This document shows, piece after piece, positions 5,529-54,263 of a DNA stretch of 64,000 nt. The position numbers were made by a program, and so were the translations under genes. Every line of letters starts with the position of its first letter. Position 1 is the first letter of the stretch. Origin of the DNA: an uncultured Fibrobacterota bacterium (lineage in GTDB: Bacteria > Fibrobacterota > Chitinivibrionia > Chitinivibrionales > FEN-1185); assembly GCA_963753345.1 (NCBI GenBank), contig CAVWBU010000032.1, forward strand, positions 96,001-160,000, given 5' to 3'. The notes beneath the pieces were generated by a model, which saw only the letters and a program-made list of their open reading frames with translations, did not search any database and was not told the DNA's origin.

Positions 5529-6284
5529 ATGCCCATAGCATTTCTCCGCGCATCCGCCATTTTGGTTGTCCCGCTGTTGTTTTTTCTCATGGACGTCAAT
5601 TGCACCGTCACAAGCCAACCGACAACCCCGACGTCCCTTGCAACGCCGTCGTATCCGTACACCGCCGCGGCCGGCGAGTCCGACACCGTGTCGTGGGACC
5701 TGGTGCAGGGCGCAACCTCCTACACGCTGTACTATACAACCGACGAGAGTTTCCCAACCTTGTCGTCGCCTCGTATTTCGGTGGGGGCGGCGACGGTTTT
5801 CGTGCATAAAAGTCTTGACCCGACGTTGACGTACACCTATTGCGTTCAGGCGGCGGGCGGGGGCAGGGTAAGCGATCTTTCCGACGAAAGCTACGGGGTG
5901 CAGCCGCTGCCCATGATCCATGCCACCATTACCTTCGACAGCTACGCGGATGCGGATGTGGGTTTCATGTATTTCCTGATCGGGATTGACACCAACGGTA
6001 ACTACGTACCCACTGCCGGCACAAGACGGACCGTGGCCGGATTCACCGATGGCTACGGCAGCGCGACGTTCAACGTCACGGTCGATCACGACAATCTTTG
6101 GGGGTATTCGACATTCGAGGACTTGGACGGCAACGGGCTTCTGTCGACCGGCGACATGGTGTGGGGCAACGACACGAGCGCCGGCCATTATGGATATTTT
6201 TACTGGACGTCACAGTTCACATCGAGCAAAACCTTTTCCAAATCGTTTGACGAGGCGTTCGCCTCATTGCCGCATGTCTACTGA
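5529..6284 (+). CDS. Exported fibronectin type III domain protein
   Basis: Hydrophobic N-terminus; VSWDLVQGATSYTLYY…YTYCVQA FN3 pattern; AAGGAG RBS. Confidence 0.65.
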   Translation: MPIAFLRASAILVVPLLFFLMDVNCTVTSQPTTPTSLATPSYPYTAAAGESDTVSWDLVQGATSYTLYYTTDESFPTLSSPRISVGAATVFVHKSLDPTLTYTYCVQAAGGGRVSDLSDESYGVQPLPMIHATITFDSYADADVGFMYFLIGIDTNGNYVPTAGTRRTVAGFTDGYGSATFNVTVDHDNLWGYSTFEDLDGNGLLSTGDMVWGNDTSAGHYGYFYWTSQFTSSKTFSKSFDEAFASLPHVY

Positions 6285-6330
6285 ACCGTCCATATGGGTA
6301 TGTTGACAAATTAAGAAAACATCGAGACGT

Positions 6331-6495
6331 CTACGCCGTCAGCCTGAATGCGACATAAATGCCGAGCAGTGCCCCAACCATGCTGCCGATCAGCGTGCCT
6401 GCCGAAATCGCGCCGGCCCCGAACAGCGTCGGCGCGTAGCCGCCGATGAGCGAGCCCGCCACCATTCCGAACATTATCATTGTTTTTCGCGACAT
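6331..6495 (-). CDS. Small glycine-zipper membrane protein (54 aa)
   Basis: MSRKTMIMFGMVAGSLIGGY…GSMVGALLGIY; two hydrophobic segments. Confidence 0.7.
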   Translation of the reverse strand: MSRKTMIMFGMVAGSLIGGYAPTLFGAGAISAGTLIGSMVGALLGIYVAFRLTA

Positions 6496-6594
6496 GTTTC
6501 CTTGGCTCCGATCTCTGCCAATAATTAATAATAGTTCTGGTGGGGACACTAATGAGTAATCTTAAAAAAGAATAGGGCGTTCCCCGCAAGACAA

Positions 6595-6654
6595 AAGAAG
6601 AGTTGGGCGCCCCGCGGCTTCGCCGCAGCGAGGGGGATACTTCCCCCGCCAACA
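6595..6654 (-). repeat. Minimal composite repeat: B outer end fused directly to A outer end
   Basis: Reverse complement of 6622-6654 matches 23874-23906 at 32/33 nt, then continues GAAGCCGCGGGGCGCCCAACTCTTCTT like the end of module A. A second A-end copy lies at 6568-6587. Confidence 0.85.
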
Positions 6655-6662
6655 ACTTTTTG

Positions 6663-8108
6663 TTATTGATTATTATCTTTTGTCAATTCCTGGGCCGCAA
6701 ACCCTAATTTCAGCAGTGTGTCTTCCCGCCATTTCGGAGCCATAAACTGCACGCCCACGGGAATGCCGTTGCTTTTTCCGCACGGGACCGAGATCCCCGG
6801 TATGCCAGCAAGGTTTGCCGAAACGGTGTAGATGTCGGTGAGGTACATCTGGAGCGGGTCGTCGCACTTTTCGCCGATTTTGAACGCGGGCGTCGCGGCG
6901 ACAGGGGAGACGACGGCGTCGCATTTCGTAAACGCGGCGTCGAAGTCGCGGCCGATAAGGGTGCGCACCCGCGCGGCCTTGAGGTAGTAGGCGTCGTAGT
7001 AGCCCGAGGACAGCACGTAGGCGCCGAGCATGATGCGGCGCTTGACTTCCGCGCCGAACCCTTCGCGCCGCGTGGTCTGATACATGTCGACAAGGGATTT
7101 AGGGTCAGCCGAGCGGTACCCGTACTTGACGCCGTCGTACCGTGCGAGGTTGCTCGAGGCTTCCGCGGTGCAAATAATATAGTAGGTGGCGATACCGTAC
7201 CCGAGATTGGGCAGTGAGACATGGGCCGTTTTACAGCCCGAGGCCTTGAGCTTGTCAAGAAGCGACTCTATGGGGCCGCGTACCTCGGCCGACAGGCCTT
7301 CGCCGAAGTATTCTTTGGGAACGCCCACCGTGATGCTGCTCGCGCCGCCTGTGTAAAGGTCATTGGTGTTTGCAAATTGATTGCCCGCGCAGGTGGAGTC
7401 GCGTTTGTCGGGCACCGAGAGCACCTCAAGAAGAAGGCCGATGTCCCGCACGTCCGCGGCAATGGGCCCTATCTGATCGAGCGACGACGCGAACGCCACA
7501 AGGCCGTACCGCGACACGCGTCCGTAGGTCGGCTTGAGTCCGACGCTGCCGCAATGGCAGCACGGCTGGCGAATGGAACCGCCCGTGTCGGACCCGAGCG
7601 CCAGCGGCACAAGGCCGGCCGCAACCGCGGCGGCGCTGCCGCCGCTCGAGCCGCCCGGGATGCGGCCGGGGTCGTTGGGGTTTTTTGTGGGGCCGAAATA
7701 GGAGTTCTCGGTGCTCGAGCCCATGGCGAATTCGTCAAGGTTCGTTTTTCCCACAATAACGGCGCCCGCGGCCAGGAGCGCCTCCGCGACGGTCGCGTTG
7801 TAGGGCGGAACAAAATTTTCAAGGATTTTTGACGCGCACGTTGTGGTGACGCCCTCGGTGCATATATTGTCCTTGACGGCGACCGGAATGCCGCACAGCG
7901 GCATCGTCTTCTTGACGTCTGCGGAAAGGGTGTCTATGAAATCGGCGCGCAAAAGCGCTGCTTCGGGCTGCACCGAGATGAACGAATGGAGATCCTTATC
8001 GCGGCCGGCGATGCGGCCGAGGGCGGTCGAGACGAGTTCGCGGCTGGATACCTTGCCGTGTGCGCATTTCGCAACAACGCCCGACACGGGCTCGTCGAAG
8101 AAGTTCAT
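6663..8108 (-). CDS. gatA: Asp-tRNA(Asn)/Glu-tRNA(Gln) amidotransferase subunit A
   Basis: GKTNLDEFAMGSS, GGSSGGSA, GSDTGGSIRQP, EASSNLARYDG and EVKRRIMLG motifs. Alternative start at 8138. Confidence 0.97.
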   Translation of the reverse strand: MNFFDEPVSGVVAKCAHGKVSSRELVSTALGRIAGRDKDLHSFISVQPEAALLRADFIDTLSADVKKTMPLCGIPVAVKDNICTEGVTTTCASKILENFVPPYNATVAEALLAAGAVIVGKTNLDEFAMGSSTENSYFGPTKNPNDPGRIPGGSSGGSAAAVAAGLVPLALGSDTGGSIRQPCCHCGSVGLKPTYGRVSRYGLVAFASSLDQIGPIAADVRDIGLLLEVLSVPDKRDSTCAGNQFANTNDLYTGGASSITVGVPKEYFGEGLSAEVRGPIESLLDKLKASGCKTAHVSLPNLGYGIATYYIICTAEASSNLARYDGVKYGYRSADPKSLVDMYQTTRREGFGAEVKRRIMLGAYVLSSGYYDAYYLKAARVRTLIGRDFDAAFTKCDAVVSPVAATPAFKIGEKCDDPLQMYLTDIYTVSANLAGIPGISVPCGKSNGIPVGVQFMAPKWREDTLLKLGFAAQELTKDNNQ

Positions 8109-8125
8109 GGGGCGGTTCCCGGGGT

Positions 8126-8425
8126 TTACTTGTACCACCTGAACAGGTAGAGGCTCACGAAAACGCCGATGATCGAAAGCAGGTTGAATTTCATCTGGAA
8201 ACCGAGCTGGAACTTGATTGCCGCAATATCGATGAGCAGCGGCTTGTTGTTCACGAAATCACCGAATCCGAAGGAGATGAAATTATAGGTGAAGAACGTC
8301 TTGACCACGTTGTTGCCGCCCGGAATAAGGGCGAAGAGCGTGCCGAGATACGCGCCGATGAGAATGCCCACAATAACGAGGAGCACCAGCGTCCATATGT
8401 TTCTGTCCTTGAGGCCGATGGCCAT
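8126..8425 (-). CDS. DUF4321-like membrane protein
   Basis: 99 aa with two hydrophobic ends; IDIAAIKFQLGFQMKFNLLSIIG pattern. Confidence 0.75.
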   Translation of the reverse strand: MAIGLKDRNIWTLVLLVIVGILIGAYLGTLFALIPGGNNVVKTFFTYNFISFGFGDFVNNKPLLIDIAAIKFQLGFQMKFNLLSIIGVFVSLYLFRWYK

Positions 8426-9927: not shown

Positions 9928-9997
9928 GATCATTCTTTCCAGATGTTGATTGATTTTCAAATGTAAGTGATCTGCTTCTGCTTTTGCAATCTGCAAT

Positions 9998-10735
9998 CTA
10001 CATTTCAATCCCCTTGTATTCCACATAATCAAGCACCAGTCCGCAGGCCGGCGCGGTTTCGCCGACGGCTTTTCGGTTTTTGTTTTCGATAATCTCTGCC
10101 ATGGTCGAGGCCAGCCTTCCCCTGCCGATGTCCACGAGTGTGCCCACGATGGACCTGACCATTTTGTAAATGAAGCGGTCGGCGGTTATCGTAAACACAC
10201 GGAGGTCGTCCCGGTCGTCAAGCGACGCCCCGCTCACCGTGCACACCATGTTTTCGGTGGACGTGCCCGTGGCGCAGAAAGCGGAAAAGTCGTGCGTGCC
10301 CGCAAGCGCCGGGATGTTGTCGCGCACCTTTGCCCAGTCCACGTCGTGGAAGACCATCCAGACCCTTTTGTAAAGCAGTGGCCGTTTCCGCCGCGCCATA
10401 AAGTACTTGTACCGCCGCGCCACGGCCGAATACCGGGCGTGAAAGTCCGGCGCCGCCGGCCGCAGGCCGTACACGCAGATGTCGTCGTCGAGCACGGCGT
10501 TCACCGACCGCTCGCACCGCCCCGCGTCCAGTGCTCCGTCGATGTCCACGTGCGCGCCCTGGCCCGCCGCATGCACGCCCGCATCGGTGCGGCCGGCGCC
10601 CGTCACCCTGCATTCGCTGCGCACCACGGTGGTGAAGGCGGCGTTGAGCGCGTCCTGGACGCTCGGCGCGTTTTCCTGCGACTGCCAGCCGCCGTAACGC
10701 GTGCCGTCGTATTCGACGCGGAAGAAATAGCGCAT
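9998..10735 (-). CDS. truA: tRNA pseudouridine(38-40) synthase
   Basis: YDGTRYGGWQ, GAGRTDAGVHA, FHARYSA and MVRSIVG motifs. Confidence 0.97.
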   Translation of the reverse strand: MRYFFRVEYDGTRYGGWQSQENAPSVQDALNAAFTTVVRSECRVTGAGRTDAGVHAAGQGAHVDIDGALDAGRCERSVNAVLDDDICVYGLRPAAPDFHARYSAVARRYKYFMARRKRPLLYKRVWMVFHDVDWAKVRDNIPALAGTHDFSAFCATGTSTENMVCTVSGASLDDRDDLRVFTITADRFIYKMVRSIVGTLVDIGRGRLASTMAEIIENKNRKAVGETAPACGLVLDYVEYKGIEM

Positions 10736-11019
10736 GTGATCCTTTTTGGAATACTACGCTTTGAGGGACGACAGCCTTGATTCTTATTCTGGACGCAAGA
10801 GCCGATATCAGTCGTGACTTTTCCTTGCATGCAGATCCTGAGAAATTTGACCCTATAAAATAGTATTGGCTCTGGGGGTATCCAAAGAAGCTTGGCTTAG
10901 GCTGGGTTCGGTGACAGTCTGGGTCTTTGACCGGCATCAGATTACAGAGGTAGTAACAAACAGGTTTTCAATACCGGCCACAATGTTGATAATTGTAGCT
11001 ACAAATACTATTTTGACTC

Positions 11020-11271
11020 ATGCCGAAATGGAACGAGTTCGTCCCTGAAGAAATCGAATACGATTTTGAAAATGAGGAACTGCATGAACATTATATCACC
11101 ATTGATGAGGCTGCAGAATGTTTTCACAACCGGTATTCGGTCCAAAGGAACAAGAAGTTTAAGGACCGGTACAAGCTTCATGGAATAACCGACAGCGGCA
11201 GAAAGCTTACGGTAATCTTTCAGTTGAAAAGGCTTGGTGTCGTGAGAATTATCACCGGATGGGAGACGTGA
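11020..11271 (+). CDS. BrnT-like type II toxin
   Basis: 83 aa; H-ITIDEAAECF…RYKLHGITDSGRKLTVIF…VRIITG pattern. Confidence 0.75.
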   Translation: MPKWNEFVPEEIEYDFENEELHEHYITIDEAAECFHNRYSVQRNKKFKDRYKLHGITDSGRKLTVIFQLKRLGVVRIITGWET

Positions 11272-11275
11272 AACC

Positions 11276-11560
11276 ATGCGTATGATTCGAAACAAAAAAA
11301 CCTCGAAGAAAGAAAAAACAATTGACAATGCCGTCATGGAAGCCGCATATGACCATGACCAGTGGGAAAAAGAATTACCCGTCACCCCGAAAACGGTTCC
11401 CACCTCGATCCGACTGAGTCCGCGCACGATCCGCCGGGCGAAATTGTTCGCGCGCGTCCATTGTCAGCGCGGATATCAGAGCTGGCTGAAGAAGATCATC
11501 GAGGATCGCATCGATACGGAGTATGAGATTTACAAGGGAATACGCGGGACCGGAGCGTAA
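11276..11560 (+). CDS. Cognate BrnA/CopG-like antitoxin
   Basis: TSIRLSP…GYQSWLKKII ribbon-helix-helix pattern; directly downstream of the toxin. Confidence 0.72.
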   Translation: MRMIRNKKTSKKEKTIDNAVMEAAYDHDQWEKELPVTPKTVPTSIRLSPRTIRRAKLFARVHCQRGYQSWLKKIIEDRIDTEYEIYKGIRGTGA

Positions 11561-11635
11561 CAAGGGGATGGGTGCGCCTGAAATAATGGAGCCGGCGGCC
11601 GTACTAATCAACCAACAATATATTCTCGACTGGTC

Positions 11636-12763
11636 TCACACATTACCTTTCACTATCCTGTAGCAGAACACCTGAAACCCCGCCTTCGAATCATCAAACC
11701 TTCCGGTCTTGATGCCGGTGTCGAATTCCGCAAGAAGGGAGAAGATCCGCCGGTAATTCTCATAAGTGAATGATACCGCCTGGTCGATGAGCCGCGGCTT
11801 GATCACCGCCGGATACAGGCGGCCCGCCTGGCTTTCGGTAAAGATCCCCGCACCGAGGGCGAGTGCGAGCGCCGCCTCATTTTGCCGCGGCCTCGAAAAA
11901 GACCGGTAGTTCCCGAGCAGGGTGGGATTCGCTTTTGCAAACAGGGAAATCCTGAAAAGCGACCAGAAATGCCTGAAGATTGCGCCCACGTACGGCGGAA
12001 GATAAACGCTTCCGGTGTAGATGGATTCGATAATCTCCAGGCCGCGTGCCATGTTTTTTTCACCGAGCGCCTGGGCCAGTTCGAATTGCGTGGCCTCCCG
12101 CGTAGCTCCTGCAACGGCGTCGATCACATCGCGGCTGATTGCGGCTTTTGGCTCAAGGAAAAGGTCCAATTTCTGAAGTTCCGAATACAGGACCGCGGTG
12201 TCCGCGCCCACAAGGTCGACGAGATGCTCCGCGTCGTCCTTCGAAATGCGCCTGCCGAACAGGTGCGGAACCTGCGCCTCCACCCATTCGGCCATCTTGT
12301 AGTCGGGCGGTCTCGGAAATGTCTTCACGCAAAACCGCTCCGGCGCTTTTTTCGCAAACCCCTCAAAGGATTCGAGCCATGCCGAGTATTTTTTCGACAG
12401 CGCCGAATCTTTTGTCTTTCTTCCGCCCTGCACCTTGTCCGTTTCCATCACGACAAGCGCGTCGGGCACGTCGCATGCGAAAAGTCCGGTGAGCCGTGCG
12501 AGTTCGTTTTCGTCAAGAAGATGGACGTCCGGGATGATAAAGACGCGCAGCGGCGACAAAAGCGACGGCGTGATGATGCGCTCGCAGAATTCATCGAAGG
12601 CGGCGTCTTCGGCGTTGAAGCGGTGCACCTCGGCATCGGGCTGCTTTTTTTTCACCGCGGCGATAATGGCGGCGCGTTCGAGTTCGCGGCTCGTGATATC
12701 GTCGCCGGCAAGCAAGACAAAACGGAGCAGCAAATCGCCGGAGCTGGAAAAGATATCGCTCAT
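11636..12763 (-). CDS. holA: DNA polymerase III subunit delta
   Basis: TPSLLSPLRV, LVDLVGADTAVLYSELQKL and FELAQAL patterns; appropriate length. Confidence 0.88.
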   Translation of the reverse strand: MSDIFSSSGDLLLRFVLLAGDDITSRELERAAIIAAVKKKQPDAEVHRFNAEDAAFDEFCERIITPSLLSPLRVFIIPDVHLLDENELARLTGLFACDVPDALVVMETDKVQGGRKTKDSALSKKYSAWLESFEGFAKKAPERFCVKTFPRPPDYKMAEWVEAQVPHLFGRRISKDDAEHLVDLVGADTAVLYSELQKLDLFLEPKAAISRDVIDAVAGATREATQFELAQALGEKNMARGLEIIESIYTGSVYLPPYVGAIFRHFWSLFRISLFAKANPTLLGNYRSFSRPRQNEAALALALGAGIFTESQAGRLYPAVIKPRLIDQAVSFTYENYRRIFSLLAEFDTGIKTGRFDDSKAGFQVFCYRIVKGNV

Positions 12764-21824: not shown

Positions 21825-23855
21825 ATGAAAGATACTACAAAGCCGCGTCGGCCGGAACTTCTCGCGCCCGCCGGCACCGTGGAGTGCTTCCGTGCGGCCA
21901 TTGACGCGGGCGCAAACGCCGTGTACCTCGGGCTCACCGATTTCAACGCGCGGCTCCGCGCCCGCAACTTCACCATGAAGACCCTCTCATACGCGGTGCC
22001 GTTCGCGCACGCAAGGGGCGTGCGGGTGTATGTGACATTCAACACGCTTGTCAAGCAGGCGGAGCTCGGGCGCGCCGTTGATTTCCTGTACCAGATCGAG
22101 CAGATCGGCGTGGACGCGGTCATCGTTCAGGACATGGGAATCGCGCGGATTGCGGCCGCGGAGTTTCCGCGCTTGCGCCTGCACGCGAGCACGCAGACGG
22201 CCGTGCACAACAGCGCGGGCGCGGACGCCTGCAGGCGGCTCGGATTCCGTCGCGTGGTGCTTGCGCGCGAGCTCACGCTCGCGGAAATCGGCACAATATG
22301 CGCTGCCTCCAAGATCGAAGTAGAGGTGTTCGTGCACGGCGCACTGTGTTATTCGATTTCGGGCGAGTGCCTTGCGTCAAGTTTTTTCGGCGGATCGAGC
22401 GGCAACCGCGGCAGGTGCACGCAGGTGTGCAGGCGCGCGTTCGACAGGCTGCCGACTGCGAAGGGCGCAGCGCAGGATATTTTTTCTCGCCCAGCGACCT
22501 TTCCGCAGTCGACTCGGCTGCCGCAATTGGCGCGGCAGGCGTGGCGAGCCTCAAGATCGAGGGCCGCATGAAGGCGACCCAGTACGTTCGACGCCGCGAC
22601 AGGCGCTTTCCGGATGGTGCTTGACGATCCGGGAAAAACGGAAGAGGCCAAGCTGCGGCTGTCGCGCGATATGGGGAGAAGGAAAACAAGGCTTTTTCTT
22701 GACGGCATTGTTCATGACGGGATCATCGACCACGTGAACCCGTCGGGCACGGGAATTCCCCTCGGCACGCTTGTTAAAGTTGACGGACGGGAGATCGTCG
22801 TGGCGGCCGCGGAGCGGCCCGGAGCAGGCGATCTGATACGGGTGCACCCGAAGGATGGGACCGAAGGAGTGACGGCGGCCGTGGAGAGCGTTACCGTCAA
22901 AGGAGACGAGGTACACATCATCCTTGATAAAGTCATTGAGTGCGGTCCCGGTGATTCGGCATATCTCGTCGGCTCCGAGAAATCGGCGGGGAAAGGCGAT
23001 ACGAAGTTCGACGTAAAGCCCGCGGGGTTCCGCGAAAACCTCCGGGACAGCTTTGCCATGGCGCGCCGTCACAGCGCGCCGCCTCCGGTCCAGGCAAACC
23101 GCGACCGCCGGCTGTTTGTCAGAATAGACTCGTTTGACTGGCTTCCGCTGCTTGACGCGCCGGACATTGGAGGAGTAATTTGCGCTTTCGACAAAGATGG
23201 CGTGCGGCGTCTGGCGGGTGATGAAGAGGCGAAGAAAAAGCTCGGTCGCGCCGCCTATGTCGAGCCGCCGCCGTTCATAGGGGAAGGTGAGCTTGCGGAA
23301 TGGCGGGGGATTGTGCGCGAGATGTGTGCCGGGGATACATTCGGCCTGATGGCCGCGAACCTGGGGCATGTTCCGCTTGCCGCCGGCATCGTGCGCGTGC
23401 GGGCCGACTTCCAGCTGTGGTGCCTCAACCGGGCGGCGCAGGCCGCGTACCGCGGCCTCGGCATGAAACACTTCACCTATTCCCTCGAAGACGACTCGAT
23501 GAACATCCGCGAATGCGCTTCACAGAACGGAATGATGTATCTGTTTACGCACGTGCCGCTGTTCGTTTCCAGGATAAAGCCGGCGGTCGAGCCGGGTGCG
23601 CGCTTGGTTGACCGGTTGGGGCGAAAGACGTTTGTCGCGGAAAAACATGGGCTGCACTACCTTGTGGCGGAGGAGACGGTGTGCCTTTTTCACAAGCGCC
23701 GAAGGCTTGAGGAACTCGGCATCCTCACGTTCTGCGTTGATCTGAGTTTCATGGAGCCGGACGGGAAGGTTCTGGGTGAGATTCTGGATTGCTATACAAA
23801 CGAGAAGAAGTTTCCGGGGTCGTGCCTTTTTAATTTCAAGGGCGGTCTAAAATAG
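21825..23855 (+). CDS. U32 peptidase-family protein (RlhA/TrhP-like), interrupted by two compensating frameshifts
   Basis: PELLAPAG, HASTQ, VHGALC and NRGRCTQVCR in frame 1; YFFSPSDL and SLKIEGRMK in a shifted frame (~22450-22588); the original frame resumes at DAATGAFRMVLDD. Confidence 0.85.
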
Positions 23856-23873
23856 CTCTTACAGAGATGATAC

Positions 23874-24037
23874 TGTTGGTGGGGGAAGTATCCCCCTCGC
23901 TGCGGCCCGGCGCTACCTAACAACTCAACTCTCGTCAATCGCGCCGGTCCTTCGCTACCCCCTCCTGGGTGGCCGCCTTGACAAAGCGGTAGCAAAACCA
24001 TGTATTGCTGTGGCGGCACCCACGGAGAATAGTTGAA
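23874..24037 (-). repeat. Structured intergenic repeat, module B copy 2
   Basis: Reverse complement aligns end to end with 21232-21362, with a longer internal hairpin. Confidence 0.85.
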
Positions 24038-24090
24038 ACGTTGAATAGTTGAAAAGCCAATACCAGAAAACTGGACAAAGAAAAACAAGT

Positions 24091-24118
24091 GTCATTGCGA
24101 GCGCAGCGAAGCAATCTC
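24091..24118. repeat. REP-like short palindrome GTCATTGCGAGCGCAGCGAAGCAATCTC
   Basis: ATTGC…GCAAT stem; partial second copy GTCATTGCGAG near 36097. Confidence 0.6.
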
Positions 24119-24207
24119 CCAATGATTTTTACCTAAAAGAACCTTGTCTGATTTGCTGCGAATGCCGATTGGCGTGAGAATGTAACTTGACGGAATAGAG
24201 TTCTTCT

Positions 24208-24348
24208 GCCGCGCGTTAGGTGGACCGGAGGGTGAGCTAGAGCGAATTGCCGGCCGACCCCGGCCGAAGGCCATCGGGGCGGTCCGGCAACGAGGCGAAC
24301 AGCCGAGCCCGCAGGGAGACCGACCCCGCGAAGCGGGGGAACGCCCAA
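24208..24348 (+). repeat. Structured intergenic repeat, module A copy 2
   Basis: GCCGCGCGTTAGGTGGACC…GGGGGAACGCCCAA. Confidence 0.9.
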
Positions 24349-24372
24349 ATCTTCTTAAGAAATTAATTTGAA

Positions 24373-25143
24373 TTATAAGTGTTGGCCCTCAGGCGGCACA
24401 TCGGGCAGGGGACTCATGTTAAAGTAGAGCTTTACAAACAGGGTAAACGCCTCTTCGAATTTCTTTCCGTACGACACTTCCGGGTTGCGGCCCGGGTTGT
24501 CGAGCTCGAGCTTCTGCCACTCCTTCAGCTGATACACCAGTTCCCTCGATATGATGCGCAATTTGATGATCTGGTTGTTCTGCGTCTGCCACGCATGTAT
24601 CCGCGCGTCGGATTTGGGAGAGGTGAGCGAGATGTCGAAGGCCGAGTCGGGGATGCAGATGCTTTTCGGCAGGGCGTAGGGAGAGTTGCGCGCCGCGCAA
24701 TACAAGAAGTAAAAACCTTTCAGGAACCGCGGGAAGAACGCGTCGAGGTACAAAAGCTTGTCCCACCGCTCGTGCTGCAGGTCGCGCTCGAAGGTCTCGA
24801 GCGTCGGAATAAACGTTTTGACCACGCGGTTGAGAATGTCCGCCTCAAAACTTGAAATCATGAATGCCTTGTCGGGCGGCTCATCGTGCATGATTTTCTG
24901 GCGCCCGTCCTTGGTCACCTTCACTTCGAAGTCGGTGACCGGCGCGATAAGGACGTAGTACGATTCGTCTTCGTCGGAACCGCCGAAACTCACCTTCACT
25001 TTTTCAAATTGATGGGTCTCGTCGTTGAAGGAGACGTTGAGCCGCGCAAGAGGAATTCCGTAGGACGTGCGTTTGCCCGGTGTTTCCGCGCCCGCGAGGG
25101 AGAGCAGCGCAATGATCGCGATGAGTAGGATCTGAGGAACCAC
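24373..25143 (-). CDS. Exported hypothetical protein
   Basis: Signal peptide; host-like codon usage; follows the fusA operon. Confidence 0.72.
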   Translation of the reverse strand: MVPQILLIAIIALLSLAGAETPGKRTSYGIPLARLNVSFNDETHQFEKVKVSFGGSDEDESYYVLIAPVTDFEVKVTKDGRQKIMHDEPPDKAFMISSFEADILNRVVKTFIPTLETFERDLQHERWDKLLYLDAFFPRFLKGFYFLYCAARNSPYALPKSICIPDSAFDISLTSPKSDARIHAWQTQNNQIIKLRIISRELVYQLKEWQKLELDNPGRNPEVSYGKKFEEAFTLFVKLYFNMSPLPDVPPEGQHL

Positions 25144-36022: not shown

Positions 36023-36160
36023 AAAACCAAAACAACAACTGGAAGCTGGGTTTTTTTTATTGCCGCGCGCAGTATACCAATGAAGTTGCAGAAAGCGTCA
36101 TTGCGAGTGCTTGGAATTCCAGGTGGCGCAAAGATGTAATTGACTTAACGGATTTCTTCT

Positions 36161-36306
36161 GCCGCGCGCTAGGCAGGACCGGAGTGGTCCCGCCGTAGCG
36201 GGATTGCCGGCCGACCCCTCGCCGAAGGCGACTAGGGGCGGACCGGCAACGAGGCGAACAGCCGAGCCCGGAGGGAGGGCCGCCGCTGCGAAGCAGCGGG
36301 GCGCCC
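36161..36306 (+). repeat. Structured intergenic repeat, module A copy 4
   Basis: GCCGCGCGCTAGG…TTGCCGGCCGACCC…CCGGCAACGAGGCGAACAGCCGAGCCCG…GGGGCGCCC. Confidence 0.88.
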
Positions 36307-36331
36307 GATTCTTTTTCTTTGAGCTATTTAT

Positions 36332-38194: not shown

Positions 38195-38471
38195 GCTATC
38201 CTCCTTTGATAAGCTGTGTTGGCGACCGTCATGCGTGCATCTTGATGATTACGTACCATGCGGCATGAAGGTTATCTTTGCAACCTAACAAACATAATAA
38301 AATGCACGGCCGATTTCATCATAAATCACGGGCAGTGATGGTTTAAGGATTGAAGACTGTCATTTCATTCCCTAAAGTATGGTAATAGCGCTTCGCGCTT
38401 TGCATTATGTCTATTGCCTCTTCTCCACAGCTTGCTGCGGGAGTCTTCAACTATTTTCATCATAATTATTT

Positions 38472-52731: not shown

Positions 52732-53097
52732 ATGTCTTCCAAAAAGGACCTCATCCGCGAGTACAAGCAGCGCATTGCTCCGATGGGAGTGTTCCGCGTG
52801 ACCAATTCCGCGAACGGAAAAATCCTCGTCGGCAGTTCAAAAAGCCTCGACACCAAATTCAACAGCATCCTCTTCCAGCTTAGAATCGGCAGGTTCCCCA
52901 ATCCCGCGCTCCAGGCCGACTTCGAAACGTGCGGGGAAGCGGCTTTTTCATACGAGATTGTCGATACGCTTGAACCAAAAGACGATCTTCTTTACAACTA
53001 CGATGATGACCTGAAAACACTTGAGGAACTATGGCTTGATAAGTTGAGGCCGTATGATGAAAAAGGATACAATAGTGAGAAGCTGCGGAAGTTGTAG
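52732..53097 (+). CDS. GIY-YIG-superfamily small protein
   Basis: MGVFRVTN…GKILVGS and NPALQAD pattern. Confidence 0.75.
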   Translation: MSSKKDLIREYKQRIAPMGVFRVTNSANGKILVGSSKSLDTKFNSILFQLRIGRFPNPALQADFETCGEAAFSYEIVDTLEPKDDLLYNYDDDLKTLEELWLDKLRPYDEKGYNSEKLRKL

Positions 53098-53178
53098 ATT
53101 GATGATTGTGAATTGAAAAACAGCTTAACCGTTTTCTTAGGTTTTTAAATCTACAATCTAAATTCTACATTCTACAAT
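53092..53178. repeat. Inverted pair of AT-rich heptamer arrays between convergent genes
   Basis: ttgtaga ttgatga ttgtgaa ttgaaaa … aatctac aatctaa attctac attctac. Confidence 0.6.
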
Positions 53179-54263
53179 TAAGTGACCGGCGGCGGAAAAT
53201 ACCTGTCGAGCCGCGAAAAAATAAATTTGTCTCCCGCCAGCACGATCTGCTTGCCCATCAGCGCGTCGCGCACGTTGATCTGCCGCATGAACACCCTGGC
53301 CCATACGTCCGCATTGACCGTGACCGTGAGGTCCGGCGAAGGAACTTTCCCTTCCGTAAATGTGCAGGTGCCATGGTCCACGGCAAGGGTAACCGCATAG
53401 TTCTTGTCCGGGAATTCAAACTGGAGCACCGTCTTCAGGCGGGCGGTTGCCAGCGGGTCGACGCTCCTTGCCATCTCCTGCATCAGGATGCGCACGTCCG
53501 ACATCACGTTTTTGCTCAGAAGGTCCAGGTTGTTTGATTGTTCCCCCATGGCAAGCGCATGTTCCCAGTAGATGTTCGAGTACTTGCTGAAATAGGAAAG
53601 GTCGGGCGACAGCGGCGCAGACGCCTTTTGCTGCGTCTCGGACGAGATCGCGCCTGCCGAAGCGAGTTCGTACCCTGCCTTGATAAAGGCGGCCTCAATC
53701 GACTTGACCGTGAGCGGCTTGGCAAGCGTGAATTGCAGCAGGTACGATTCGGGCCTCGTAAGCTCGCCGCAAAGCTCCATGGACATGGCGTTGGCATACA
53801 GGGAGAACATGCTCCTCACTGCGGAGAAATTCTCGTCTCCCTTGAAAGCCCCCACCACGATCGCGGCGATCTTCTTGGGCCATTTTTCGGGGAAGCGGAG
53901 CGCATTGCGCACCGTGCCCAATGGCGACTGCTCGAATTTCGATTGCGTGAGAGGCAGGGTGCGGTCGAGCACGTTTTTGAGGTGGCTGCTCACGGTGAAC
54001 GCGTTGAGCGGCGTGGCGCAGACGACCATCTCCGCGTCGAGGATGTCCTTAAGGATCATTGCCATGTCGTCGCGGATCACGCAGGTCCCCGGCGAGGTGA
54101 CCCAGCAGCCGTAGCAGCCGAGGCACTGCTTTATGTCAAGCGACGGCAGGTCGCGGTCGACCAGGTCTGCGCCTCCCTCGATCGCGCCCTTGACAAAGAG
54201 GTCGGTAAGGCGCCGGGTGAAACCGTTTTTTCTCGGATACGCGCGCAACAGGAGCATTTTCAT
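53178..54263 (-). CDS. Iron-sulfur flavoprotein (flavodoxin-fold) fused to an SCP2 lipid-binding domain
   Basis: CLGCYGCW…GTC motif, ATP(L)N and DRT; C-terminal LQFEF…PDLTV…ALMGKQIVLAGD SCP2 pattern. Confidence 0.85.
   Translation of the reverse strand: MKMLLLRAYPRKNGFTRRLTDLFVKGAIEGGADLVDRDLPSLDIKQCLGCYGCWVTSPGTCVIRDDMAMILKDILDAEMVVCATPLNAFTVSSHLKNVLDRTLPLTQSKFEQSPLGTVRNALRFPEKWPKKIAAIVVGAFKGDENFSAVRSMFSLYANAMSMELCGELTRPESYLLQFTLAKPLTVKSIEAAFIKAGYELASAGAISSETQQKASAPLSPDLSYFSKYSNIYWEHALAMGEQSNNLDLLSKNVMSDVRILMQEMARSVDPLATARLKTVLQFEFPDKNYAVTLAVDHGTCTFTEGKVPSPDLTVTVNADVWARVFMRQINVRDALMGKQIVLAGDKFIFSRLDRYFPPPVT

Follow-up and report, generated by a model that had tools for sequence, protein, structure and literature searches.

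A fused B–A piece behind gatA in an uncultured Fibrobacterota bacterium, probably a deletion relic of a modular intergenic repeat family

Several families of non-coding bacterial repeats offer points of comparison for the locus described here. The BOX elements of Streptococcus pneumoniae are built from short modules (boxA-boxB-boxC, ~45-60 nt); forms without boxB exist, and the form consisting of the ends only is common. To our knowledge, BOX elements have neither coding capacity nor a dedicated enzyme. The REP/BIME repeats and REPINs of Enterobacteria and Pseudomonas, which are associated with RAYT transposases, are extragenic hairpin repeats that number in the hundreds and often lie close behind stop codons. 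REP sequences have been proposed to stabilise 3' ends and are assembled with linkers into mosaics. Correia elements of Neisseria and MITEs carry inverted repeats at their termini, are flanked by a target-site duplication (TA in the case of Correia) and occur in many copies of a short form; a shorter Correia form produced by internal deletion exists. Replication slippage between short direct repeats, finally, is a general mechanism of deletion.

The piece that concerns us here is 60 bp long and joins the outer ends of two repeat modules, B and A. It lies behind gatA in a 64,000-nucleotide stretch of DNA (the window, C32:96001-160000) from the genome of an uncultured Fibrobacterota bacterium, which is assembled into 55 contigs with a total of 4.52 Mb and is 94% complete (G000 in the comparisons below). 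Positions without a contig name are those of the window. The features of the locus are as follows.

6654 down to 6595, minus strand: the 60-mer, TGTTGGC-GGGGG-AAGTAT-CCCCC-TCGCT-GCGGC-GAA-GCCGC-GGGGCGCCCAA-CTCTTCTT
6622-6654, minus strand: head of the B module, with the outer TGTTGGC, a hairpin GGGGG-AAGTAT-CCCCC (6632-6647) and then TCGCTGCGGC
6622-6630, minus strand: junction repeat CGCTGCGGC, identical at 8 of 9 positions to CGCCGCGGC of two full A copies
6595-6626, minus strand: 3' end of the A module, with a hairpin GCGGC-GAA-GCCGC (6614-6626), the tail GGGGCGCCCAA (6603-6613) and then CTCTTCTT
6568-6587, minus strand: a second, orphan A tail, GCGGGGAACGCCCTATTCTT, starting 7 bases past the 60-mer and 15 nt downstream of the first tail motif
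6663-8138, minus strand: gatA (TIGR00132, 596 bits against a cut-off of 481; Pfam Amidase, E 2e-151), its stop codon 8 nt upstream of the 60-mer
6331-6549, minus strand: the next open reading frame downstream, a small hydrophobic protein of 72 aa as listed, start uncertain, without a Pfam family

The composition of the 60-mer, as read in an earlier note on this DNA, is confirmed. Its B part, the reverse complement of 6622-6654 (TGTTGGCGGGGGAAGTATCCCCCTCGCTGCGGC), is identical to 23874-23906 at 32 of 33 positions and corresponds in nhmmer searches to positions 3 to ~33 of the B model and 2-33 of the C model. It runs directly into the outer end of A: the reverse complement of 6595-6621 (GAAGCCGCGGGGCGCCCAACTCTTCTT) matches 24330-24356 at 22 of 27 positions and 36290-36316 at 23 of 27, and the A part as a whole corresponds to positions 160-192 of the A model. 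With blastn-short, positions 29-55 of the 60-mer are identical (27/27, E 1e-8) to a full A copy at C48:18606-18580. The two parts overlap: the last five bases of the junction repeat, 6622-6626, not only finish the B head but also supply the 5' arm of A's terminal hairpin. The tail at 6603-6613 is the 3' strand of the helix that closes the A module, and the 5' strand of this helix is absent from the 60-mer. The extra A end noted at 6568-6587 is also present; it is an A-type tail, and the resulting double-tail arrangement recurs at ten other places, to which we return below. The stretch 6568-6654 is no assembly artefact, since it is identical in independent contigs of a different study: two Logan contigs from two runs, covering 6553-6794 (X4) and 6569-6798 (X5), show 0 differences and 0 gaps. 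Four runs were examined for joints or indels at 6568-6654, and none was seen.

The modules belong to a large repeat family. B measures ~180 nt and A ~190 nt, and in composites of the two a short tandem tract lies between them. A profile search of the genome gave 430 A matches, 394 of which reach the 3' end, and 303 B matches; the distinct heads of B/C type number 311. The family comprises 216 B-to-A composites, 178 copies of A without B and 95 copies of B without A. A co-oriented A tail is found 313-690 nt downstream of 216 of the 311 heads, about seven times the ~30 expected if A tails were scattered over non-ORF DNA, and there is one case only of an opposite-strand A within 700 nt of a B head. 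B and A are therefore not independently placed but truly juxtaposed, in strict order and orientation. This order (216 against 1) favours the interpretation offered in the earlier note, namely a single element, acting or moving as a unit, whose two ends are B and A. The 60-mer would then be a MITE-like minimal derivative that retains both cis-acting ends of the transposable unit and is itself mobilisable.

Both modules are structured. The A tail, GGGG(AA)CGCCC, is the 3' strand of the closing helix and has its partner, GCGTT or GCGCC, ~125 positions upstream; the helix (45-49:172-176) covaries, with TA in 187-190 and CG in 61-63 of 260 distinct copies at its two varying pairs. The A hairpin directly before the tail varies freely in sequence while its pairing is kept. 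The head hairpin of B is nearly invariant in sequence, with covariation at pair 9:18 (GC in 228 and AT in 18 of 251 copies). The B head hairpin and the A tail are the parts of the family most conserved in sequence, a second point in favour of a MITE-like derivative defined by its ends. Partial forms are found elsewhere in the genome, with head, tract and A at C20:48157 and the head alone at C14:11042.

The family extends beyond this genome. The exact B head motif occurs 206 times in G000, 146, 76, 30, 16 and 0 times in five other species of the genus; several further genera of the order have 3-18 copies of the motif. By BLAST, copies of A are numerous in the four congeneric species rich in the B head motif; an exact 13-mer from the head of A undercounts A in G002, G004 and G005 (at least 40 BLAST matches each), and no claim that A is absent is based on it. 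Searching the whole window against Rfam gave 0 matches at the gathering score, and 23800-24420 gives a 7-bit chance match (E 2.1). The family has distinct modules in a fixed order and orientation and is intergenic, non-coding and present in many copies, as expected of modular interspersed repeats. A search of article full texts found no literature on such repeats in this bacterial group. We conclude that A and B form an abundant, genus-wide and previously undescribed family of modular, structured intergenic repeats.

Other recurrent sequences are found in and around the modules. Upstream, 243 B heads share a consensus of an A run and then TTTTTGGT, and downstream of A tails the consensus is AANTCTTTTTTT; both are general rather than specific to individual copies. 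The B-A spacer at 24091-24119 contains GTCATTGCGAGCGCAGCGAAGCAATCTCC, which has ~18 copies in the genome and a related piece at 36097-36112. A short repeat rich in TACATTCTACAAT units is present at 53092-53196, C41:32300-32420 and C21:195898-196065; the copies on C41 and C21 stand in place of the middle of A, between the A 5' half and the tail. A repeat of ~60 nt beginning with GTCATTTCATTCC is found at 38358-38419 and C18:78258-78330, with up to 23 BLAST matches, and the copy on C18 sits inside a B module. Some repeat-bearing stretches are present twice in identical or near-identical form (C44/C46, C32:49259/C54:4757 and C27:273354/284848), through duplication of the segments or redundancy in the assembly.

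The fused form is unique. A blastn-short search of the genome with the 60-mer gave 328 matches, of which the self-match alone is full-length. A regular expression requiring a tail no more than 260 nt behind a head returned six candidates: two palindromic heads of inverted B copies lying by orphan tails, two other hairpins, the 60-mer, and C35:154975. The last is the only other true head-plus-tail piece and joins B 5-36 to A 142-191 at a different junction. A head flank followed by a tail within 38 nt occurs at one place in 61 genomes of the order, the 60-mer itself, and the fused form is absent from the 60 other genomes, which include five congeneric ones that carry the modules. The earlier note had held that its interpretation would fall if B/C and A ends were distributed independently and no other fused copies existed. 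The first half of this does not apply, the modules being juxtaposed far above chance; as to the second, the search across the genome with BLASTN-short and across the 60 other genomes by pattern found no second copy with the same junction. The 60-mer and the C35 piece are two independent derivatives that retain precisely the conserved ends, which again suits a MITE-like origin, but a fused form with a single copy in one of 61 genomes does not.

The ends themselves were compared with permuted controls. At the 60-mer, a terminal inverted repeat is limited to the 5 nt GTTGG/CCAAC. In 139 composites, the energy of the duplex between left and right flanks is -5.09 kcal/mol against -5.22 +/- 0.13 kcal/mol for permuted pairs, and the outermost bases, taken position by position, pair as often as they do after permutation. 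The longest direct word shared by the 24-nt flanks of the same composites is 4.54 against 4.47 +/- 0.08 after permutation, and these flanks show no target-site duplication beyond the permuted controls. By eye, the flanks of single copies appear complementary, A-rich on the left and T-rich on the right; permutation gave no copy-specific signal, and the appearance stems from the general A-rich left and T-rich right context. An inverted tail upstream of B, considered as a possible terminal inverted repeat, is found at only 3 of 243 heads. As to enzymes, the Y1 (RAYT/IS200-type) transposase domain PF01797 has 0 matches in G000 (94% complete), while a control search detected it in 6 of 14 reference genomes. 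Twelve intervals of less than 6 kb lead from a solo B to a co-oriented solo A and contain ORFs of unrelated sizes; in nine ORFs from seven of the 12, Pfam scans revealed no transposase or recombinase domain.

Within composites, the history of the B part is not linked to that of the A part. A Mantel test on 211 non-duplicate composites, exact duplicates having been dropped before the final test, gave a correlation between B-part and A-part distances of r -0.007 (permutation sd 0.02), and comparison of the head-bearing half of B with the tail-bearing half of A gave r 0.001. The test has power, since the two halves of A correlate at r 0.53. Between the two halves of B the value is r 0.09, which implies that B itself is mosaic. 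In line with the Mantel values, the nearest B relative of a composite has a median rank of 98 of ~210 among its A relatives, which is random. Nearest other copies lie at a median distance of 0.14 for B and 0.10 for A, which speaks against a recent burst of copying. The proposal that B and A act as the two ends of one mobile element is thus not supported, given their unlinked histories and the 178 A and 95 B copies that stand alone. Nor is there support for the 60-mer as a MITE-like minimal derivative, since it is a singleton with neither end pairing nor target duplication beyond the permuted controls. We consider this interpretation very improbable and already close to refuted.

The 60-mer is more readily understood as a product of loss. 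The junction lies within a direct repeat, CGC(T/C)GCGGC, that is common to the flank of the B head and the arm of the A hairpin and matches at 8 of 9 positions, a placement that points to slippage or illegitimate recombination. The A subtype with the same terminal hairpin is represented by two complete copies, C48:18606 and C49:14988, in which lead-in and 5' arm read CGCCGCGGC. Slippage or illegitimate recombination would have occurred between the near-identical 9-mers CGCTGCGGC, after the B head hairpin, and CGCCGCGGC, in the 5' arm of the A hairpin. In its simplest version, this would be an internal deletion of roughly 250-600 nt in one B-tract-A composite behind gatA. The event would have taken out the interior of B, the tract and the initial four fifths of A, leaving the B head hairpin, the A terminal hairpin, a closing-helix 3' strand deprived of its partner and, downstream, an older orphan A tail. 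We infer both the deletion and the composite that served as its substrate, and consider it probable that 6568-6654 is a single, immobile relic of the modular repeat family that arose in this way.

Because composites are the rule (216 of 311 heads), one deletion suffices to produce the 60-mer. Deletion is the simplest account for further reasons. The chance meeting of ~7 truncated heads with 67 orphan tail motifs within 15 nt has an expectation of 0.005; no reciprocal product is found, as 0 of the 303 B matches start at model positions 21-60; and other partial forms exist with other break points. The count of 67 orphan tails is inflated by chance matches, as the strict tail motif read backwards gives 124 matches, and only the ten orphan tails beside resident tails are used in what follows. 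Evidence against deletion is that no sister genome shows a full composite at the gatA site. The retention of head plus tail in two derivatives, the 60-mer and the piece on C35, could hint at selection on the ends, although the search targeted only that combination. The reverse order of events, in which the hairpin doublet is an ancestral, unoccupied target into which the interiors of B and A were inserted later, has its formal possibility in its favour. It is difficult to reconcile with the lack of any other such doublet in 61 genomes, with the occurrence of A (178) and B (95) alone, each with a full structure of its own, and with the A tail being half of a helix that, in complete copies, it forms with a strand 125 nt upstream. 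We attach almost no credence to it.

Relatives of the organism give some insight into the history of the gatA locus. B-derived sequence follows gatA at three of ten loci scanned (three of five within the genus, G000 and G002-G005). It is nearly complete in G005 (model 4-169), covers model 88-130 in G002 and consists of the head only in G000; the profile scan found none in G003, G004, G007 and four further relatives. Since B-derived sequence is found behind gatA in G000, G005 and G002, the B head at this place is probably old and vertically inherited. No A was found at the gatA site of G005 and G002, and the A tail of the 60-mer may for that reason have arrived with other DNA. An alternative to internal deletion can be built on this, namely that an old solo-B head after gatA was joined to an A tail, second tail and 72-aa gene from another locus, by illegitimate recombination at the common 9-mer, when the linkage of gatA to an NlpC/P60 gene broke.

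Gene order agrees with such a junction up to a point. An NlpC/P60 lipoprotein gene follows gatA in G002, G003, G005, G007 and G036, and synteny downstream of gatA in G000 is unlike that of these five relatives, the gene being located on C41. The window from 5711 to 6660 has no DNA match in G002-G005, and the 72-aa ORF itself has none in these genomes. The broken synteny fits a two-locus junction as well as it fits an internal deletion. The reciprocal junction of A 5' part and B interior is, however, absent from the assembly, as seen from the starts of the B matches above. It was also sought upstream of the NlpC/P60 gene on C41 and is not there; that gene lies behind an A copy with a foreign insert and no B remainder. 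Slippage over a few hundred bases requires fewer assumptions than an event between loci at an 8/9-nt match. Furthermore, in the closest relative, G001 (gatA 91% identical), contigs end at positions corresponding to window 5711 and 7025, the latter inside gatA, so that G001 is not among the ten loci scanned; the stretch between them is missing, and these facing ends suggest the same gene order before G000 and G001 separated. We regard the joining of two loci as unlikely, and internal deletion remains the preferred explanation.

Immediately downstream of gatA (window 6655-6669 and counterparts), almost every species of the genus has its own arrangement, with respect to both the neighbouring gene and the repeat content, and the region is a rearrangement hot spot. 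G002-G005 were considered as sources of an empty site for the 60-mer and have other neighbours behind gatA. Among 80 gatA loci kept from metagenome contigs none exceeds 67% identity, and the matches in other genome contigs, in a search that left near relatives outside, come from distant phyla only (at most 58%).

The second A tail at 6568-6587 has parallels. Orphan A tails 17-41 nt downstream of a resident A tail occur at ten other places, where ~0.13 would be expected, and the spacers between the tails are unrelated.

C16:113773, C16:247495, C18:40430, C27:273354 and C27:284848: double tails, with an orphan tail behind a complete A copy
C31:89764, C32:72039, C43:2164, C44:9140 and C46:9554: double tails, with an orphan tail behind a complete A copy

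In eight of the ten, a GGGGCGCCC tail comes first and a GGG(G/A)AACGCCC tail second, and in many doublets the 3' arm of a hairpin otherwise lost is still attached to the second tail. Judged by their sequence, the second tails resemble remnants of older A copies, namely their final 15-30 bases, left behind when replacement proceeded from the 5' side.

Comparison of sites between G000 and G001 also bears on turnover. At 23874-24356, a B-to-A composite is present in both genomes (contig C80 of G001) between flanking genes that are ~90% identical. The two genomes agree in the head hairpin (23874-23906), and A ends in 30 identical nt (24327-24356), whereas everything between these ends (B interior, tract and A interior) has diverged strongly, far beyond the level seen in the flanks. 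At ~9951-10005, between htrA-like and truA-like genes, G001 has an inverted B-A composite of ~415 nt (G001:C224:3107-3523) and G000 has 54 unrelated bases that include TGCAATCTGCAATCTACATTT; the comparison reveals neither a clean empty site nor a duplication. The divergence of the interior at the first site and the lack of a clean empty site at the second suggest turnover by exchange between copies more than by cut-and-paste. The preservation of both ends at 23874-24356 is a further point that could be claimed for the MITE-like derivative discussed above. It can also be taken to mean that two parts, the head hairpin of B and the terminal hairpin and tail of A, act as site-stable, cis-acting anchors for a putative factor, the interiors being swapped by gene conversion without a transposase. 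Besides this site, the unlinked histories of B and A, the mosaic nature of B and the ten double tails are hints in that direction. If true, the 60-mer and the piece on C35 would be anchor-only states that define the minimal cis requirements for maintaining and spreading the repeats. We consider the anchor model a long shot.

Near the second of these sites, a segment of 741 nt in G000 (10896-11637) has 25 nt in its place in G001. It contains two small ORFs, the first of which is BrnT-toxin-like (PF04365, E 7e-6, below the curated cut-off).

Whatever its origin, the 60-mer may serve as a 3' hairpin of the gatA transcript. B heads lie a median of 25 nt behind a co-oriented stop codon (by crude ORF calls), and the distance at gatA amounts to 8 nt. 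Co-orientation of the upstream gene is found for 128 of 212 composites (p 0.003) and for 61 of 90 lone B copies (p 0.001; binomial tests, crude ORF calls), and no such bias is seen for lone A (91 of 167, crude ORF calls). The 141-nt stretch around the piece has a predicted fold of -46.5 kcal/mol (z -2.29) in which the two expected hairpins form. These observations are compatible with an exapted structure, that is, hairpins of any origin that selection has retained because they terminate the gatA transcript or stabilise its 3' end. However, a scan of 6200-6900 for intrinsic terminators (a G+C-rich hairpin directly followed by a T run) found no site at 6568-6654, where the T-rich run is at least 12 nt from either stem, and in 40% of composites the upstream gene does not share their orientation. 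Exaptation of this kind, which is compatible with an origin by deletion and does not exclude it, seems improbable to us.

In conclusion, the 60-mer is an ordinary decay product of an interesting and still unexplained repeat family. It cannot define the "ends" of a B+A transposon, and its value is that of negative evidence: models for the spread of the family must explain the ordered juxtaposition of B and A, at about seven times chance, without transposition of a unit. Candidate routes to this juxtaposition are targeted insertion beside a resident module and exchange between copies.

Set against the systems described at the outset, the deletion itself has its counterpart in replication slippage, with an 8/9-nt direct repeat at the junction, hairpin-forming flanks and a loss of a few hundred bases; this comparison is drawn from one product, the parental allele not being among the sequences here. 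Correia elements and MITEs share with the A/B family that they are non-coding, abundant and intergenic, and formally the 60-mer corresponds to the short form of Correia. The family differs from them in that terminal inverted repeats, target duplication and a multi-copy short form are all lacking. With REP/BIME it has in common many extragenic hairpin repeats near stop codons that are assembled in mosaics, but no Y1/RAYT gene was found in G000, and the units are far larger and no simple palindromes. In contrast to the inverted doublets of REPINs, B and A are dissimilar and co-oriented (216 on the same strand against 1 on the opposite strand within 700 nt). The likeness to BOX consists of intergenic modules in fixed order and orientation, an interior that is variable or missing, predicted stable folds and a lack of coding capacity and of any known dedicated enzyme. 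The 60-mer is the formal counterpart of the ends-only BOX form, which is common in BOX and a singleton here. Unlike the BOX modules, to which they bear no sequence relation, B and A are ~180-190 nt long and multi-helix, each also occurs alone, and their histories are unlinked. By analogy, the family appears closest in kind to the modular interspersed repeats represented by pneumococcal BOX and enterobacterial BIMEs.
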